Shown one piece after another: positions 13,153 to 29,629 of a DNA stretch of 64,000 nucleotides. The position numbers were made by a program, and so were the translations under genes. Source of the DNA: a candidate division WOR-3 bacterium (GTDB taxonomy: Bacteria > Hydrothermota > Tepidihabitantia > Tepidihabitantales > Tepidihabitantaceae); NCBI GenBank assembly GCA_013177935.1, contig JABLXZ010000002.1, positions 384,181 through 448,180 on the forward strand, in the 5' to 3' direction. The notes under the pieces were generated by a model. It did no database searches. It was not told the origin of the DNA and saw nothing but the letters and a program-made list of their open reading frames with translations. Each line of letters opens with the position of its first letter. Positions within the stretch are counted from its first letter, which is position 1.

Positions 13153-13395
13153 GGCAGAAGAAAAAGGCACTATTTACTTTTTATACGGGTTTTTAGACAA
13201 ACCTTCTGGTTTTATCGAATAGCAACGCAATCTTTATCCAAATAGATTGAAAACTTTGCGAAACCATTTCATAGAACAGTGTTTATAAGAAGACCGGTCA
13301 ATCTTAACAGCGGGAACAACGCACCTAAAATGACGGGGTTCAGTTAGCTTGATAAAATAATACTTTACAAAAGAAAAAAGTCAGTTAATAATATA

Positions 13396-14034
13396 ATGGT
13401 GGTAGTGAATATGATCGGCAGATGCTCGCGTTGGAAAAAATGCAAAGCGGGTAAAAACCCAAAGATAGGGTGTTATGGGTGTGGATTTAAACATTTTGAG
13501 AATATATTAAATGAGAACAAAGAAAATAAAATGTTACAATTTTTAGCAGAAAAATTTTTTGATTTATGCTCGGAAAGACAAAATCGGGGAGGAAGGATTG
13601 CTCTTGATAAACCAATAAATGAGTTGCTCATAAAAGAGATTCAAGAGCTTAACGAGTTGAATATCGAAGACCTTACACTGACCATTAATGGAGAGGAGGT
13701 CAATTTTAAGGTTAAGTGTGACGGGAAATTTGAGTATAACAAAATATACTTTTTTTACGAGGTCAAAGGATTAGGAGAGGGTTCCAATGATATACTCTCT
13801 GCAATCACTGCTGCCCAGTTATTAAAGGAGGCAATAGGAAGTAACTACCACTATTATTATATTGGGATTACTAGAAACAACTCCAATAACGCCTTTCGCA
13901 ATAAGAAGAAGAGTAAGATTTACCCATATGTGAAATGGGCAGAAAATAAAGGTTTTTTGAAGTTCTATAGCATTGTAGACATTCAAGAACTTGTAAACGA
14001 AATTAAACAGGTAATTAATAAAAAAGAATCTTAA
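13396..14034 (+). CDS. Hypothetical protein with N-terminal Cys4 zinc-ribbon, first gene of AT-rich RM islet (possible nuclease/accessory)
   Basis: CSRWKKC...GCYGCG zinc-ribbon-like motif; K/N/I-rich AT codon usage; possible D...EVK PD-(D/E)xK-like motif; function not recognisable. Confidence 0.4.
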   Translation: MVVVNMIGRCSRWKKCKAGKNPKIGCYGCGFKHFENILNENKENKMLQFLAEKFFDLCSERQNRGGRIALDKPINELLIKEIQELNELNIEDLTLTINGEEVNFKVKCDGKFEYNKIYFFYEVKGLGEGSNDILSAITAAQLLKEAIGSNYHYYYIGITRNNSNNAFRNKKKSKIYPYVKWAENKGFLKFYSIVDIQELVNEIKQVINKKES

Positions 14035-14069
14035 AAGGCGGCATCATCTTACACGCATAAGAAGAGATT

Positions 14070-14918
14070 ATGACCCATCATAAGTTGATAATTGGCAATT
14101 GCATGAGTATGAAAGAGATTCCAGATGAGAGTGTCCATCTGATGGTTACTTCCCCACCATATTTCAATGCACCTTTTGACTATAAAGGGCTATTTAAAAA
14201 TTATGACCAGTACCTTGGTGTTCTTAATAGGGTAGCCAAAGAAGTTTATAGAGTATTAAAAGAAGGCAGGATTGCTGTCTTAAACATTGATGATATGCTT
14301 GTCAATAGTGAAAAGTTTCCTATTGTTGCGGATGCAACGAAAATATTTCAAAGTGCGGGTTTCCGGTATCGGGATAGGATTATCTGGAAAAAACCTGATG
14401 GCTATTTAAGAATCAGCAGGAGAAGCGGGGTACTTCTCCAAAATCCTTATCCGATGTACTTTTACCCGGATAATCTTTTAGAAAGTATAATTATTTTTCA
14501 AAAAGGGAAATTTAACTATCATTCCATCCCCAAGGAAATTAGGGAAGCATCAAAGATAGACCTAAAGGAATTTTCTGATAACAAATGGTATATGACATTA
14601 TGGGAAATGGTTAATGTTTTGCCCAACTCGCCGTTAGAAAAGGAAATTGCGGCATTTCCCGAAGAGTTGCCTTATAGGATAATTAAACTATTTTCGTATA
14701 AAGGAGAAACAGTCTTAGACCCGTTTGTCGGCAGTGGTACCACAATGAAGGTTGCCCGAGAACTCGGCAGAAACAGTATCGGGATTGAGATAAAAAAGTC
14801 ATTGATTCCGATTATCAAGAAAAAGGTGGGTTTTGAAGGACAGTTGAAGATTGAGAACAGCGATGACACATTTGAGGTTATAATAAGGGAAGGCGTCAAG
14901 TATGGATGTGTCGGCTAA
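14070..14918 (+). CDS. Beta-class N4-cytosine/N6-adenine DNA methyltransferase (Type II RM)
   Basis: Motif IV SPPY near N-terminus (MVTSPPYFN) and motif I FVGSGTT near C-terminus = beta-class amino-MTase order. Confidence 0.8.
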   Translation: MTHHKLIIGNCMSMKEIPDESVHLMVTSPPYFNAPFDYKGLFKNYDQYLGVLNRVAKEVYRVLKEGRIAVLNIDDMLVNSEKFPIVADATKIFQSAGFRYRDRIIWKKPDGYLRISRRSGVLLQNPYPMYFYPDNLLESIIIFQKGKFNYHSIPKEIREASKIDLKEFSDNKWYMTLWEMVNVLPNSPLEKEIAAFPEELPYRIIKLFSYKGETVLDPFVGSGTTMKVARELGRNSIGIEIKKSLIPIIKKKVGFEGQLKIENSDDTFEVIIREGVKYGCVG

Positions 14919-15975
14919 AATTACCGGCATTAAATATTCGCCCCTTTTATGCCGAAATCTGAATACATATTCATTAAGGCAACTTGATGAGGCGTTATCA
15001 AGAGATAGCGCTTTTATTTTAAATGTGGATAACATGGGGCAAGTTGCAGTAAGTTGGTGGGTTTCAGCGAAGAGAACAAGGTCTTATCCTTACGCCCGGG
15101 TTTACGATACCCTTAGCTTTCAAGGTAAAAAAGTCACCATAATCCCAATTGTGAAAGATGAAGGAAAAGAAGGAGACCGAGACTTTTTACAGTGGGATAC
15201 TATTTCGTTAATGAGTTTATTAGGTGTTTACACAATTATCTCTTATTACAATTATGCGGAAAGAAGTCGTAGATATCGGCACAAAATAACAAGCCAGCGG
15301 TTTGATATCACACACCTTACAAGGGAAGTAAACAACCTTATGTCCTATCAATCAGATGCCTTACATTGGAACCTTGCTCAAATTGAGAATGTTGGAGAGA
15401 TAGGCAAACGGGCAATTGATTCCTATGAAAGGATTTCAAAAGAGCTTGGTGTTGAAATGCACTCCAGAGAGTCAGCCAGGGAAAGAATTGCAGAGCTCCT
15501 TAAAGGTAAAGAAAATTTTATGACGCTTTCGAGAGATTTGGCGAGGAAAGCACAAGAACGGGAATCGCAAACAAACCAACCCAAAGAAAAGTTATCCGGA
15601 ATAAAAGCAACTCTAACGATAAAAAACTATATTGGCGGTTATTATTTTTTTACCTGCGACGAGGTTAATATCGAAAAGGGAGTTATACAGTTAATAGAGG
15701 GAAAACATAGCAAGCAAAGCATCATTCCTTCATTGGAAGACATAAAAGATGGATTAGTGAAAATGATTTTATTTACTAATTTGACGGAAGTGAAAATTGG
15801 GGATGTTAAGTATAAGCCTGTCTCGATCTTAAAACTTACAAGCGACCGGAAGTTTTCATTAGCATCTTTAAGCAAGTCAAGGGTAAACGATTTACGACTT
15901 CTGAAAAGAGAAGCGATAGTGAATAATTTTAAGGTATTGGTAAACAATATCGATTTGCAGGAAATTGATATATGA
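14902..15975 (+). CDS. Candidate cognate Type II restriction endonuclease (hypothetical)
   Basis: Overlaps MTase by 17 nt (translational coupling), same AT-rich codon usage; possible PD-x13-ExK (CDEV...IEGK); no recognisable family. Confidence 0.4.
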   Translation: MDVSAKITGIKYSPLLCRNLNTYSLRQLDEALSRDSAFILNVDNMGQVAVSWWVSAKRTRSYPYARVYDTLSFQGKKVTIIPIVKDEGKEGDRDFLQWDTISLMSLLGVYTIISYYNYAERSRRYRHKITSQRFDITHLTREVNNLMSYQSDALHWNLAQIENVGEIGKRAIDSYERISKELGVEMHSRESARERIAELLKGKENFMTLSRDLARKAQERESQTNQPKEKLSGIKATLTIKNYIGGYYFFTCDEVNIEKGVIQLIEGKHSKQSIIPSLEDIKDGLVKMILFTNLTEVKIGDVKYKPVSILKLTSDRKFSLASLSKSRVNDLRLLKREAIVNNFKVLVNNIDLQEIDI

Positions 15976-16123
15976 GAAGGACGATTAGCGGTGGATAATA
16001 CACCGAAAAGGTGTGCACATAATGGAATGCACAATGATTTTAATGCAATATAACAAAAGATATAACACATTCATAGCAGGTAGAACCTTGCAAATAGGCT
16101 ATTTTTGAGGAGCACAAAACCTA

Positions 16124-16151
16124 TTGACAAAAATTAATTTTGCATTATAAT
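16124..16151 (+). promoter_or_regulatory. Sigma70-like promoter TTGACA-N16-TATAAT
   Basis: Consensus hexamers read directly, ~85 nt upstream of start at 16236. Confidence 0.55.
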
Positions 16152-16235
16152 TAAACTGGACGCAGAGTTTGATGAGTACTGAAGTTAAGCGCGACGCTAA
16201 AGCCACTCACTTTTTAAAGTGGGGAAGGAGGTGAT

Positions 16236-26652: not shown

Positions 26653-27132
26653 GTGAAAGCCATTGACATTGTAAAGTTAATTATCAGCATCGCCCTGCCC
26701 CTGGCAGCAGGCGCGCTCGGCAATATCGCCACGGCGCCGGCAATTCCTGACTGGTATCAGAGTTTAAACAAACCGGTGTTCAACCCGCCGAGATGGCTCT
26801 TCGGTCCTGCCTGGACATTGCTTTTTATCCTGATGGGTATCGCTCTGTTTTTAGTCTGGCGCAAAGGGTTTAATGCCCCGGGTATCAAACTGGCGCTACT
26901 CGTTTTTGTGATTCAGTTGGTGCTCAATGTCCTCTGGTCGTTTCTCTTCTTTGGCTTACGCTCCCCCCTTGCTGGACTCGTGGAGATTGTTATCCTCTGG
27001 CTGGCGATTCTTCTTACCATCATTCTCTTCTTCCGGATTTCTGTCCCTGCCGGTATCTTACTTTTGCCTTACATTGGCTGGGTCACCTTTGCCACTGTCC
27101 TCAACGCCGCGATAGTAAAACTGAATTCGTGA
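26653..27132 (+). CDS. tspO: TspO/MBR tryptophan-rich sensory protein
   Basis: Five TM segments with conserved Trp pattern (WYQSLNKPVFNPPRWLFGPAWTLLF...LWSF), GTG start. Confidence 0.7.
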   Translation: MKAIDIVKLIISIALPLAAGALGNIATAPAIPDWYQSLNKPVFNPPRWLFGPAWTLLFILMGIALFLVWRKGFNAPGIKLALLVFVIQLVLNVLWSFLFFGLRSPLAGLVEIVILWLAILLTIILFFRISVPAGILLLPYIGWVTFATVLNAAIVKLNS

Positions 27133-27300
27133 AAAGACTTAGTACGTTTTACTGATTAATTAAACTTTTTCTTAAACGCTTGCGTGATATGCTGTCTTAC
27201 CTTTTCTCAACAAGGAACAAAGGATCTCTAGATAATTTTTTGTGAAGGGAAGTTTTGCGCTAAGCAAAAACATGGACTATCGCCCCCCAGAAAAATGGAA

Positions 27301-29430
27301 TTAAAAATTGGTTTCATAATTTGGCGTTTTGTTCATATTTTGTAAAGTGTTTACCATTTCCGACAAAATTTTTCGGACAGTATTTATATTCCCCATTTTT
27401 TCTTGGCATACGGCTTGCCAAAGCATTGCTTTGATCATACCGGCTTTGTGATTCTCAGTTTTATAAGTTTCGAAAGTTTTAATAAATAAGCCAATTGCTT
27501 CTTGCAGATTTCCCTCGTAGTACATTTTTATACCTAAACAACACCCTAAATTTGCTATACCTTCTGTTTCTGAAAATTCCATTGATAGCTCTCTTCCCCA
27601 CTCAAAAAATTTTTTTGCTTCTTCAATTAACCTATTTACCTCTGTGAAATTTTTTGTTCGACTGTGCATTATGACTTCAGCTAAACGGTGTTTTTGAAAA
27701 AAGAACCAGCTTGATTTCTGCAGAGGAATTTGGAGCGACAGCCTATAAAAGAAAACTGAGATTCGAGCGACAATTGGGATAAAAAATTTTAGTATTTTGG
27801 TAATGAATTTTCTGCTACTTTTTGTCGCGTACAATAACGTTAGATAAAATAATCCTTCGACGATAAAATGAAAAAAATCAGCGCATTCGAAGTATAACAT
27901 GGAAGTAAATGTTCCAATGTCAAAGTCAGTCAATTTTGTTCGCCATATTCGTGTTTTCAAAACAGAGACGGCGAAGCAATAACAGGCATATAGATAATAC
28001 TTTAATGCCAAAACTTTTCTTAACCCTTTCTTTGTGCATGTATGCTTAAATAGCCCCATGTAGTCAGACCCATTTCTAATTGTTTCATGGATGAACGCAG
28101 CCAGCCGCCTCTCAGGTTTATATGTCGTATATGGCAAATATTCAATTGCTTGGTTACGTTCTTTTATAGCTAAAGTTAAGTTCCCTGCATTTCTGTAAAC
28201 TTCTCCCAAGTTTGATGAAAAAGCGTATCTTAGGTCAAAATTATTTTTTGGGATGTCTCCCCGCAAGGTCTGAAGTAGCTTCTCTGCTATTTCCCACAGT
28301 CCTGGTTTTTCCAAAATATTAGCCAAAATTAATCTCGCCGTAGCGGGGTGAAAAAAATATTTCCTTGTGTAATAATCAATAAATGTATTAATTTCATTTA
28401 TTCTGATGAGCGCCAATTCGCGCTCCCTTATTTTAATTTCATCAAAAGAGGAAATATTTATCTTAGGGAAAATAATAGTAGATAAATCTAAATTCAATCG
28501 TTTAGCAATATTGTGGAGTATTTTACTTAAATCGCCCACAAGAATGTAATGTTCCCGATGGGACAAAAATTTTATAATTTCTTTGAAACTCTGATTATCT
28601 AAAATAGATTTTTTAGGAGTATGCCATATTACTTTTTTATTTGACTTGGTACGAGCAATAACTGGGAAAACATCAATGTCGTTATTACTATAACCCATAA
28701 AGAAAATATCATAATTAGCTGAAACTGATTGTAAAAATTCTGTTTTATACGAGGGTAAGCCTATGCCTACCATTTCTACCGTGGCTAATAACTTGGTATT
28801 TTGCGGATCTTCTGTTTCATCTAACGTGCCGTGCAATTTGTATAGGTAATTATTTTTGTTGGGATAACGTAAAGCGTTCGAGTAAATTTTAGATTCATGA
28901 CCTCCCATTTGTTCGGGTACAATTAAAGGGACACCTAAGAGATGAAAGGCGTTTTCCACCAAATTATCAAAGTTTACTGTGATGAAGTGCCTACAATATC
29001 CGTATTTTGCCATTAACGCGAGGAAATAATGTCTGTAATTTGGGCCATAATTTTCTTTAAGGTATTTTGGCTTCAAAATATCGTAAAACTCTAATGAAGT
29101 TTCGCCTATCGTCCTTGATATAAAGTCTAATAATACTTCTAATGCAAGTCTTTTGACTTCATTGGTACCTTTTTCAGTGAGTATATTCTCGATTCCTGCT
29201 TCTCTGAAAAGCATATTCCTAATAAGTTGTTTGAGTCCGGGCAATACAAGATTCGAGGATAATTCACAATTATCAGAGAGAGGTAATAGAGAGGGATATT
29301 CTAAAGAGATTCCTGCTCCAAAGAAGAAAATAAGACAAGAATTTCTAAGCGAATTTGCAATTTCCTCTAATGCCTCGTCAAGATTGCGGGATACGATTAA
29401 AGTACTCTTTTCTACCTTATAGCACTCCAT
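27301..29430 (-). CDS. SIR2-domain (defense-type, SIR2_2/DSR-like) protein with ~400-aa C-terminal alpha-helical/TPR-like domain; candidate NADase anti-phage effector
   Basis: N-terminal SIR2 motifs GAGIS (FFFGAGISLEYP), TVNFDNL (cf. TTNYDxL) and KLHGT (cf. KLHGS) in the order and spacing of ThsA/DSR SIR2 domains; AT-rich codon usage; flanked by AT-rich non-coding DNA. Confidence 0.6.
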   Translation of the reverse strand: MECYKVEKSTLIVSRNLDEALEEIANSLRNSCLIFFFGAGISLEYPSLLPLSDNCELSSNLVLPGLKQLIRNMLFREAGIENILTEKGTNEVKRLALEVLLDFISRTIGETSLEFYDILKPKYLKENYGPNYRHYFLALMAKYGYCRHFITVNFDNLVENAFHLLGVPLIVPEQMGGHESKIYSNALRYPNKNNYLYKLHGTLDETEDPQNTKLLATVEMVGIGLPSYKTEFLQSVSANYDIFFMGYSNNDIDVFPVIARTKSNKKVIWHTPKKSILDNQSFKEIIKFLSHREHYILVGDLSKILHNIAKRLNLDLSTIIFPKINISSFDEIKIRERELALIRINEINTFIDYYTRKYFFHPATARLILANILEKPGLWEIAEKLLQTLRGDIPKNNFDLRYAFSSNLGEVYRNAGNLTLAIKERNQAIEYLPYTTYKPERRLAAFIHETIRNGSDYMGLFKHTCTKKGLRKVLALKYYLYACYCFAVSVLKTRIWRTKLTDFDIGTFTSMLYFECADFFHFIVEGLFYLTLLYATKSSRKFITKILKFFIPIVARISVFFYRLSLQIPLQKSSWFFFQKHRLAEVIMHSRTKNFTEVNRLIEEAKKFFEWGRELSMEFSETEGIANLGCCLGIKMYYEGNLQEAIGLFIKTFETYKTENHKAGMIKAMLWQAVCQEKMGNINTVRKILSEMVNTLQNMNKTPNYETNF

Positions 29431-29629
29431 AAATTACCTTTTATTCAGTTTTTTGTCTTGGCCTGCTACATATCCAACTTTGATATGAATGCCTAAATTA
29501 CCATATAAACGCTGTTGGATATTTGGCATCGTTGATATTTATAATTTATTTACATCACAAAGTCAAGGATTTTGGGTAAAAGTTTGCGATGGTCCGGGGC
29601 GGAAGGTTAGGTCCCGAAAAAGTCCCTTT

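Follow-up and report, generated by a model that had tools for sequence, protein, structure and literature searches.

Do three neighbouring genes of one direction and one foreign composition make up a single restriction-modification (RM) system, or do they combine independent units? We address this question for an AT-rich islet (positions 13153-16235) in a stretch of 64,000 nucleotides from a candidate division WOR-3 (Caldifarciminota) bacterium; this stretch is called the window below, and all coordinates refer to it unless another locus is named. The islet carries three open reading frames (ORFs), all on the plus strand, ORF1, ORF2 and ORF3, of 212, 282 and 357 amino acids (aa). The original prediction described them as a horizontally acquired Type II RM islet and proposed that all three genes might form one system, either Type IIG-like or with an accessory component. 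Our analysis agrees with the former proposal and argues against the latter: the islet is probably a composite of two independent units, a self-contained mobile Type II RM module (14067-15975) formed by ORF2 and ORF3, and a putative stand-alone nuclease encoded by ORF1.

ORF1 does not belong to this system as a third subunit, because it does not co-occur with the ORF2-ORF3 pair, because the pair is widespread without it, and because the homology that delimits the mobile unit starts downstream of ORF1. In a tblastn comparison over 48 loci, the contig of the window was the sole one with an ORF1 homolog that also gave ORF2 and ORF3, and no ORF1 homolog was found at the ORF3-family loci L008-11, L050/51 and L052-55. 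The two families also differ greatly in size, with 3289 homologs of ORF3 versus 39 of ORF1. A role of ORF1 as an accessory subunit was rejected on the grounds that its homologs occupy about 20 independent loci, with ORF2 and ORF3 present only in the window lineage. The Type IIG organisation was rejected as well: ORF2 is a plain protein of 282 aa with no fused nuclease or further domain beyond PF01555, and ORF1 and ORF3 are separate genes; no fusion was observed.

The methyltransferase-endonuclease pair

ORF2 matches the N6_N4_Mtase family of Pfam (PF01555, E=1.6e-48, residues 22-251), its best PADLOC model is MTase_II (PDLC03353, E=2.3e-76), and the nearest solved structure is that of TTHA0409 from T. 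thermophilus (PDB 2zie, E=2.6e-29). Both motifs on which the original prediction was based are present in the translation, TSPPYF near residue 28 (motif IV) and FVGSGTT near residue 220 (motif I), and the order of motif IV before motif I places the enzyme in the beta class of amino-methyltransferases. In motif IV, SPPY is the hallmark of N4-methylcytosine (m4C) and DPPY that of N6-methyladenine (m6A) (PMC10406627, PMC3425538). As motif IV of ORF2 has the SPPY form, the base that it produces is probably m4C.

Which of the two flanking genes encodes the endonuclease had been left undecided; we now assign this role to ORF3. It matches the REBASE-derived PADLOC model REase_II (PDLC03572) with E=3.7e-97 over residues 2-349, a second PADLOC endonuclease model matches residues 250-316, and across unrelated genomes the gene stays linked to the methyltransferase through an overlap of 17 nt each time; because of this match and this linkage, ORF3 is the predicted cognate endonuclease of the islet. 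The PD-(D/E)xK-type motif that had been suspected in ORF3 was found as D253-x12-E266-x-K268, and 38 homologs show no variation at the catalytic residues D253, E254, E266 and K268. In the AlphaFold2 model (predicted local distance difference test, pLDDT, 82) these four residues sit on a beta hairpin of a C-terminal PD-(D/E)xK core (approximately residues 234-347), preceded by an N-terminal beta-rich domain (~1-135) and a helical linker (~136-223). No Pfam or NCBIfam family matches ORF3, comparison with the PDB by single sequence and by profile gave only noise, and searches of plasmids, phages and IMG/VR returned no match. Its homologs are spread over Bacteroidota, Zixibacteria, Brocadiia, Caldisericum and other groups, and every record is named 'hypothetical'. 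Among the best 120 of the 3289 homologs, amino acid identity is 66-96%, a conservation across several phyla that is unusually high for a restriction enzyme.

The pair behaves as a unit. It recurs in three other, unrelated chromosomal settings, namely beside tRNA synthetase and RAMP genes (L008-11), after a penicillin-binding protein gene (L050/51) and after thioredoxin genes (L052-55), with the methyltransferase (called at 269-282 aa) always first and with the same overlap, which is present in L008-L011, L050-L055 and L012. Blastn homology between the window and these loci extends from 14067, 3 nt before the methyltransferase ATG, to 15975-15984, at the endonuclease stop, with nucleotide identities of 81, 75 and 72%; at the protein level, the methyltransferase of the window is 94% and its endonuclease 80% identical to those of L008. 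Thus ORF2 and ORF3 show the features of an orthodox Type II RM system, with amino-methyltransferase motifs, a separate endonuclease gene, and linkage of the two across unrelated genomes.

Horizontal acquisition of the islet, as originally predicted, is supported both by its foreign composition and by the occurrence of the module in unrelated genomes. In 1-kb windows at 13-16 kb the G+C content (GC) is 0.367-0.374, compared with a host mean of 0.525 (standard deviation 0.029), which corresponds to z = -5.2 to -5.5. In low-GC hosts the module (GC 0.26-0.32) differs little from its flanks (0.28-0.37), but its value here is 0.375 in a genome of 0.51. Since its GC matches the flanks in low-GC hosts but not here, the data are consistent with import of the module from a low-GC donor. 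It had been suggested that relatives carrying the islet at the same locus with host-like GC would contradict this origin. In the related strain L049, which is 92.4% identical to the window over 5 kb, the RM pair does lie before the same Kelch gene, and the islet is still AT-rich (GC 0.38 versus 0.50); the RM genes are 94.5-98% identical and the flanks 91-92%. The same position and the retained composition indicate that the islet predates the split of the two strains and has persisted without amelioration, as judged from these sequences. Proteins 99-100% identical to ORF1 and ORF3 are encoded in a WOR-3 metagenome-assembled genome (MAG) (NPV14264.1, HPY86_04965, and NPV14266.1, HPY86_04975, respectively), and the three islet genes are contiguous there too.

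In L008 the module is part of a larger cluster (L008:1748-9668), which contains a second N6_N4 methyltransferase (364 aa) and an NTP_transf_2/Polbeta protein (107 aa); a 270-aa protein of no assigned family abuts the methyltransferase start of the module (L008:4169-6074), and the RAMP genes follow downstream, with no Cas10 in the stretch that was fetched. The 270-aa protein is related neither to ORF1 nor to ORF3, and the same holds for a 337-aa neighbour in L001.

ORF1 and its relatives

ORF1 belongs to a small family. A word-indexed search yielded 39 relatives and a full profile scan of 1.84 billion (1.84e9) representatives yielded 51, from archaea, Chloroflexota and WOR-3. The family members have about 200-250 aa and no fusions, and the distant ones, too, lack Pfam domains. 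ORF1 itself had no match in Pfam, NCBIfam, PADLOC or PHROGs, only noise in comparisons with the PDB by sequence and profile, and no match in plasmids, phages or IMG/VR; the latter searches give no evidence of plasmid or phage carriage for either ORF1 or ORF3. Alignment with the homologs suggests that the real start is probably Met6, at 13411.

The alignment of 34 family members reveals two conserved parts. In the N-terminal part C10, C16, C26, C29 and H33 are invariant, forming the pattern C-x5-C-x~9-C-x2-C-x3-H. In the remainder of the protein R67, D71 and K107 are invariant, position 109 is D or E in 34/34 sequences (D109 in ORF1), E122-x-K124-G-x-G is invariant, and a helix with the sequence N-D-x-L-S-A-I-T-A-A-Q is almost so. 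The D109...E122-V-K124 motif in ORF1 had been anticipated as a possible one; in the AlphaFold2 model (pLDDT 90.3, predicted template modelling score 0.86) D109 heads strand 110-114 and E122-x-K124 lies in strand 117-124, and this placement is the canonical PD-(D/E)xK arrangement. The modelled core has the restriction-endonuclease-like alpha-beta-beta-beta-alpha-beta topology. Restriction endonucleases and defence effectors are its best structural matches, with Can2, VC1899, NucC, Cdn1 and Card1 among the top neighbours. The N-terminal Cys4 zinc-ribbon of the original prediction requires a partial revision. Its four cysteines were found to be invariant or conservatively substituted, but a helix directly follows the CxxC in the model, and the metal site looks more like a treble-clef or knuckle type than a classical two-hairpin zinc ribbon. 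The invariant segment of residues 26-34 (C-x-G-C-G-F-Q-H-F) resembles, in a profile comparison, the zinc finger of S. pombe Red1 (PDB 6ygu) at E=0.63, which is below threshold and not significant; the spacing is CCCH-like. ORF1 is thus modelled as a protein of the restriction endonuclease fold in which the catalytic signature is intact and to which a metal-binding knuckle is added; none of its characterised relatives is close. From the model we infer that it is a nuclease.

To compare genomic contexts we collected 33 loci with ORF1 homologs, about 20 after removal of duplicates, and judged neighbours within ~2.6 kb. They have no common partner, and in about 16 of the 20 independent loci there is no methyltransferase domain. 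Four of the ~20 adjoin an RM enzyme, and these enzymes represent four unrelated RM families. Besides the window, the homolog lies directly upstream of a Type IIG MmeI-like enzyme with a gap of 7 nt (L006), near a Type ISP enzyme (L036), and downstream of an unrelated pair of a methyltransferase and a NotI-like endonuclease (L045/46); the methyltransferases concerned are accordingly of Type IIG, of Type ISP, a 672-aa N6_N4 enzyme, and ORF2. Four of ~20 is, in our estimate, more than chance would give. The lack of a linked cognate methyltransferase in ~16 of the 20 loci, and the unrelatedness of those present, speak against ORF1 as a classical Type II endonuclease. An RM controller (C) protein or Vsr was rejected, as no helix-turn-helix (HTH) or Vsr match was seen at E<=1 and the adjacent methyltransferase is an amino-methyltransferase rather than one producing 5-methylcytosine.

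Other neighbours of ORF1 homologs include SIR2_2 (L024), an AAA ATPase with a WYL/WCX regulator (L022), PemK/HicB toxin-antitoxin genes (L013), an HNH nuclease (L002) and a DDE transposase (L038). In the archaeal locus L016 (L016:4333-5726) the homolog overlaps by 4 nt an upstream 223-aa gene of the HSDR_N/PDDEXK_3 type. A type III-A Cas10/Csm locus is 2 kb away from these two tandem PD-(D/E)xK-type genes, and a UvrD-PDDEXK helicase and an EVE-domain gene adjoin them. A different kind of locus is seen in three Chloroflexota/Dehalococcoidia MAGs, where the ORF1 homolog is found in the conserved order YjeF/NAD(P)HX repair gene, ORF1 homolog, ADH-like gene, nitroreductase gene. It has host-like GC there and is 80-84% identical, versus 74-87% for the flanks, and no methyltransferase is near it in any of the three. 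These sequences point to stable vertical inheritance of the Chloroflexota homolog without a linked methylase.

In two unrelated loci a gene for a ~190-210-aa protein with an N-terminal zinc-ribbon (Zn_ribbon_3/DZR) flanks the ORF1 homolog, upstream in L002 (5053-5688) and downstream in L045 (4560-5132); it may be a recurrent neighbour or a coincidence. The SIR2_2 protein of L024 was also compared with that encoded elsewhere in the window: they have only the domain in common (27% identity over 157 aa), and a close relationship was rejected.

Possible roles of ORF1 beside the pair

In the explanation that we propose, ORF2 would be translated first and would protect the recognition site by methylation, and translation of ORF3 would be coupled to that of ORF2 via the 17-nt overlap, which is a likely translational coupling site. 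ORF3 would then cut the same site in unmethylated incoming DNA. ORF1 would act as a Mg2+-dependent stand-alone DNA nuclease that spares the host DNA by means other than a linked methylase, since its family normally has no cognate one. The most plausible of such means would be that, in a Type IV-like manner, it depends on a modification or structure which the host DNA does not have, or is otherwise conditionally active; the Cys4(His) site would serve as a structural or DNA-contact module. The spacer of 35 nt between ORF1 and ORF2 contains no predicted terminator, and promoter-like sites for the islet genes were found by consensus scan only upstream of ORF1. For these reasons local co-transcription is probable, and ORF1 would supply the promoter for the RM pair; their adjacency would be of the defence-island kind rather than subunit membership. 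Most simply, ORF1 can be read as an autonomous gene that tends to accumulate in defence or mobile regions and that abuts the RM pair in this lineage. As in Type IV systems, its family normally has no cognate methylase and often occurs in defence neighbourhoods, mostly solitary. A further-reaching proposal, according to which the family is an undescribed single-gene defence nuclease that settles beside unrelated RM types (4 of ~20 loci), Type IV-like or in cooperation with RM, is in our opinion rather doubtful.

Several points weigh against the composite of a mobile RM module and a stand-alone nuclease. Probable co-transcription of ORF1 with the RM pair and their shared foreign composition make a local functional link possible. 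The contig of L049 ends inside the methyltransferase gene, so that co-inheritance of ORF1 with the pair is not visible there. Defence genes are missing from about half of the loci with ORF1 homologs, and many of the contigs are too short for a judgement. Foldseek, too, puts the structural neighbours of ORF1 at the top, but with marginal statistics (E ~1e-3, TM 0.44). No modified-base reader domain (SRA, EVE/YTH, winged helix) was detected in ORF1 with Pfam or PADLOC, the Cys4(His) knuckle being its one additional module, and this weakens the Type IV interpretation. Finally, the functions of all three ORFs are predicted from sequence and models.

A repair or recombination role for ORF1, or its reliance on the neighbouring methylase in this lineage, is possible but less likely. 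That ORF1 is a housekeeping nuclease of DNA repair or recombination, specific for structures or mismatches like NucS/EndoMS, Hjc or Bax1, and stands beside the RM pair by chance, seems unlikely to us: 51 representatives in 1.84e9 proteins are a sparse and patchy distribution atypical for repair, its composition marks the gene as foreign to this genome, defence and mobile neighbours recur, and the best structural matches lie elsewhere, among restriction endonucleases and defence effectors. We give slightly less credit still to a one-methylase, two-nuclease RM system, in which ORF1 would be a second classical Type II endonuclease relying on ORF2 methylation of the same or a nested site. An endonuclease-like fold with intact catalytic residues would suit this role, as would the place of ORF1, which shares the AT-rich composition of the methyltransferase gene and is co-directional with it across a short gap with no predicted terminator; its homologs in L045 and L006 also abut RM genes that include a methyltransferase. 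However, 16 of the ~20 loci, including the vertically inherited Chloroflexota housekeeping locus, have no methyltransferase within the distance considered, the methyltransferases that do occur nearby are of unrelated families and would not share one specificity, and the RM pair forms a complete system that is widespread in the absence of ORF1.

Least probable, and by a wide measure improbable, is a role of ORF1 as a signal-activated effector nuclease of the NucC/Can2 type, responsive to cyclic oligonucleotides, or as a regulator of the RM operon without catalytic activity. The effectors listed above as top structural neighbours, the Cas10/Csm locus near one ORF1 homolog, and the upstream position of ORF1, where controller genes sit in some RM operons, would agree with such roles. 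Nevertheless, ORF1 has no CARF, SAVED or other sensor domain, CD-NTase and Cas10 are missing from its neighbourhood both in the window and in most loci, and the lack of an HTH together with the conserved D...ExK speaks against a purely regulatory function.

The islet in its host genome and among known systems

The layout of the islet is given in Table 1. The AT-rich character extends to each of its genes (GC 0.338 for ORF1, 0.379 for ORF2 and 0.373 for ORF3); the flanking host genes, thioredoxin-like and Kelch/T9SS (type IX secretion system), have 0.525 and 0.507.

Table 1. Positions of the islet features in the window
Feature	Positions	Strand	Remarks
Left AT-rich junction and intergenic region	13153-13395	+	GC 0.333; promoter-like sites 13304-13331 and 13364-13392 upstream of ORF1
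ORF1, predicted stand-alone protein with PD-(D/E)xK fold and N-terminal Cys4(His) metal site	13396-14034	+	Outside the conserved RM module
ORF2, beta-class DNA amino-methyltransferase, modification subunit	14070-14918	+	PF01555, PADLOC MTase_II
ORF3, predicted cognate Type II restriction endonuclease	14902-15975	+	PADLOC REase_II, conserved catalytic residues
Overlap of ORF2 stop and ORF3 start, 17 nt	14902-14918	+	Same in every module copy examined
Right AT-rich junction	15976-16235	+	GC 0.369; sigma-70 consensus 16124-16151 upstream of the Kelch/T9SS gene

The overlap of ORF2 and ORF3 has exactly the length originally proposed. Each of the two promoter-like sites before ORF1 has 10/12 consensus matches, at the level of pattern. 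Searches for repeats, tRNA genes and Rfam families revealed no flanking direct repeats, tRNA gene or Rfam match at the islet borders. A perfect sigma-70 consensus (TTGACA-16-TATAAT) occurs in the right junction, ~85 nt ahead of the host Kelch/Por_Secre_tail gene; the junction is 91.8% identical in L049, and the promoter of this host gene may now be supplied by imported DNA.

A second AT-rich islet (GC ~0.35) is located at 27301-29430 on the minus strand; the 709-aa protein encoded there carries a SIR2_2 domain (PF13289, E=1.1e-9). The similarity in codon usage that had been noticed between the two islets is confirmed: in relative synonymous codon usage, the three ORFs and the SIR2_2 gene are correlated at r = 0.42-0.61, versus -0.24 to 0.22 for the ORFs and host genes.

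Host DNA strongly avoids many 4-bp palindromes, as counted on both strands of the window (1-64000 minus 13153-16235 and 26800-29600) against a Markov expectation. Observed versus expected numbers are 12/470 for GATC, 2/88 for CTAG, 8/132 for ACGT, 96/686 for GGCC, 82/337 for CATG and 46/215 for AGCT; CCGG, GCGC and GTAC are not depleted. This pattern suggests that the WOR-3 lineage may have been exposed for a long time to several 4-cutter RM systems. Derivation of the recognition site of the module from palindrome avoidance was attempted and rejected, because many 4-mers are avoided at once and the depletions are common to the module hosts, in most of which GGCC, CATG, GATC and CTAG are each depleted, leaving no discrimination. 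Beta-class m4C methylases specific for GGCC exist, M.PhoI and M.SuaI (PMC3425538, PMC11033074); GGCC as the site of this module is a speculation.

The RM pair adds little new biology. It belongs to a family already covered by REBASE-derived models and is ordinary save for its high conservation and lack of annotation; the absence of a Pfam or NCBIfam model for an ORF3 family as widespread as this, with more than 3000 clusters and 'hypothetical' in all source records, is an annotation gap that could easily be closed. ORF1 is the more useful product. It defines a rare family of compact nuclease-fold proteins whose metal-binding N-terminus is unusual and for which no relatives have been described; the family is new and small within the known PD-(D/E)xK superfamily. 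If it is indeed a stand-alone restriction or defence nuclease, it represents a small new enzyme family; if not, it exemplifies that RM neighbours need co-occurrence evidence before they are read as subunits.

Among known systems, the islet pair resembles orthodox Type II RM systems with a beta-class methyltransferase, of the PvuII or RsrI type of organisation: the methyltransferase and endonuclease genes are separate and small, motif IV (SPPY) precedes motif I (FxGxG), the endonuclease is of the PD-(D/E)xK kind, and the overlapping genes form an operon in which M is followed by R. ORF1 has the CCGG-family endonucleases (PspGI, NgoMIV, Cfr10I, Bse634I, SgrAI, AgeI, BsaWI, Kpn2I and EcoRII-C) among its nearest structural relatives, with 8-14% identity and no detectable sequence homology; it differs from them in its smaller size (212 aa), its added N-terminal Cys4(His) site and the usual absence of a linked methylase. 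In NgoMIV-type enzymes the ExK strand is followed by an R-(D/E)-R recognition motif, which ORF1 lacks; it has G-x-G-D-x-x-N-D at that place. NucC and the nuclease domains of Can2/Card1/VC1899 are likewise among the nearest structural relatives of ORF1. Compared with these effectors and with Type IV enzymes (the nuclease domains of MspJI and McrC), ORF1 lacks any sensor or reader domain, such as CARF, SAVED or SRA, and its Cys4(His) module is, to judge by the matches, absent from them; unlike NucC, Can2 and Card1, it has no cyclase or Cas10 partner at most loci, Cas10 being near only one homolog (L016). NotI is a Type II restriction endonuclease with an N-terminal Cys4 metal site, which is much larger than ORF1 and has a cognate methylase. 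ORF1 does not match the Pfam family of NotI (PF12183), and the NotI-like gene in L045 is merely a neighbour of its homolog; compared by description, however, ORF1 is like NotI in that a PD-(D/E)xK endonuclease fold follows a four-cysteine metal site.

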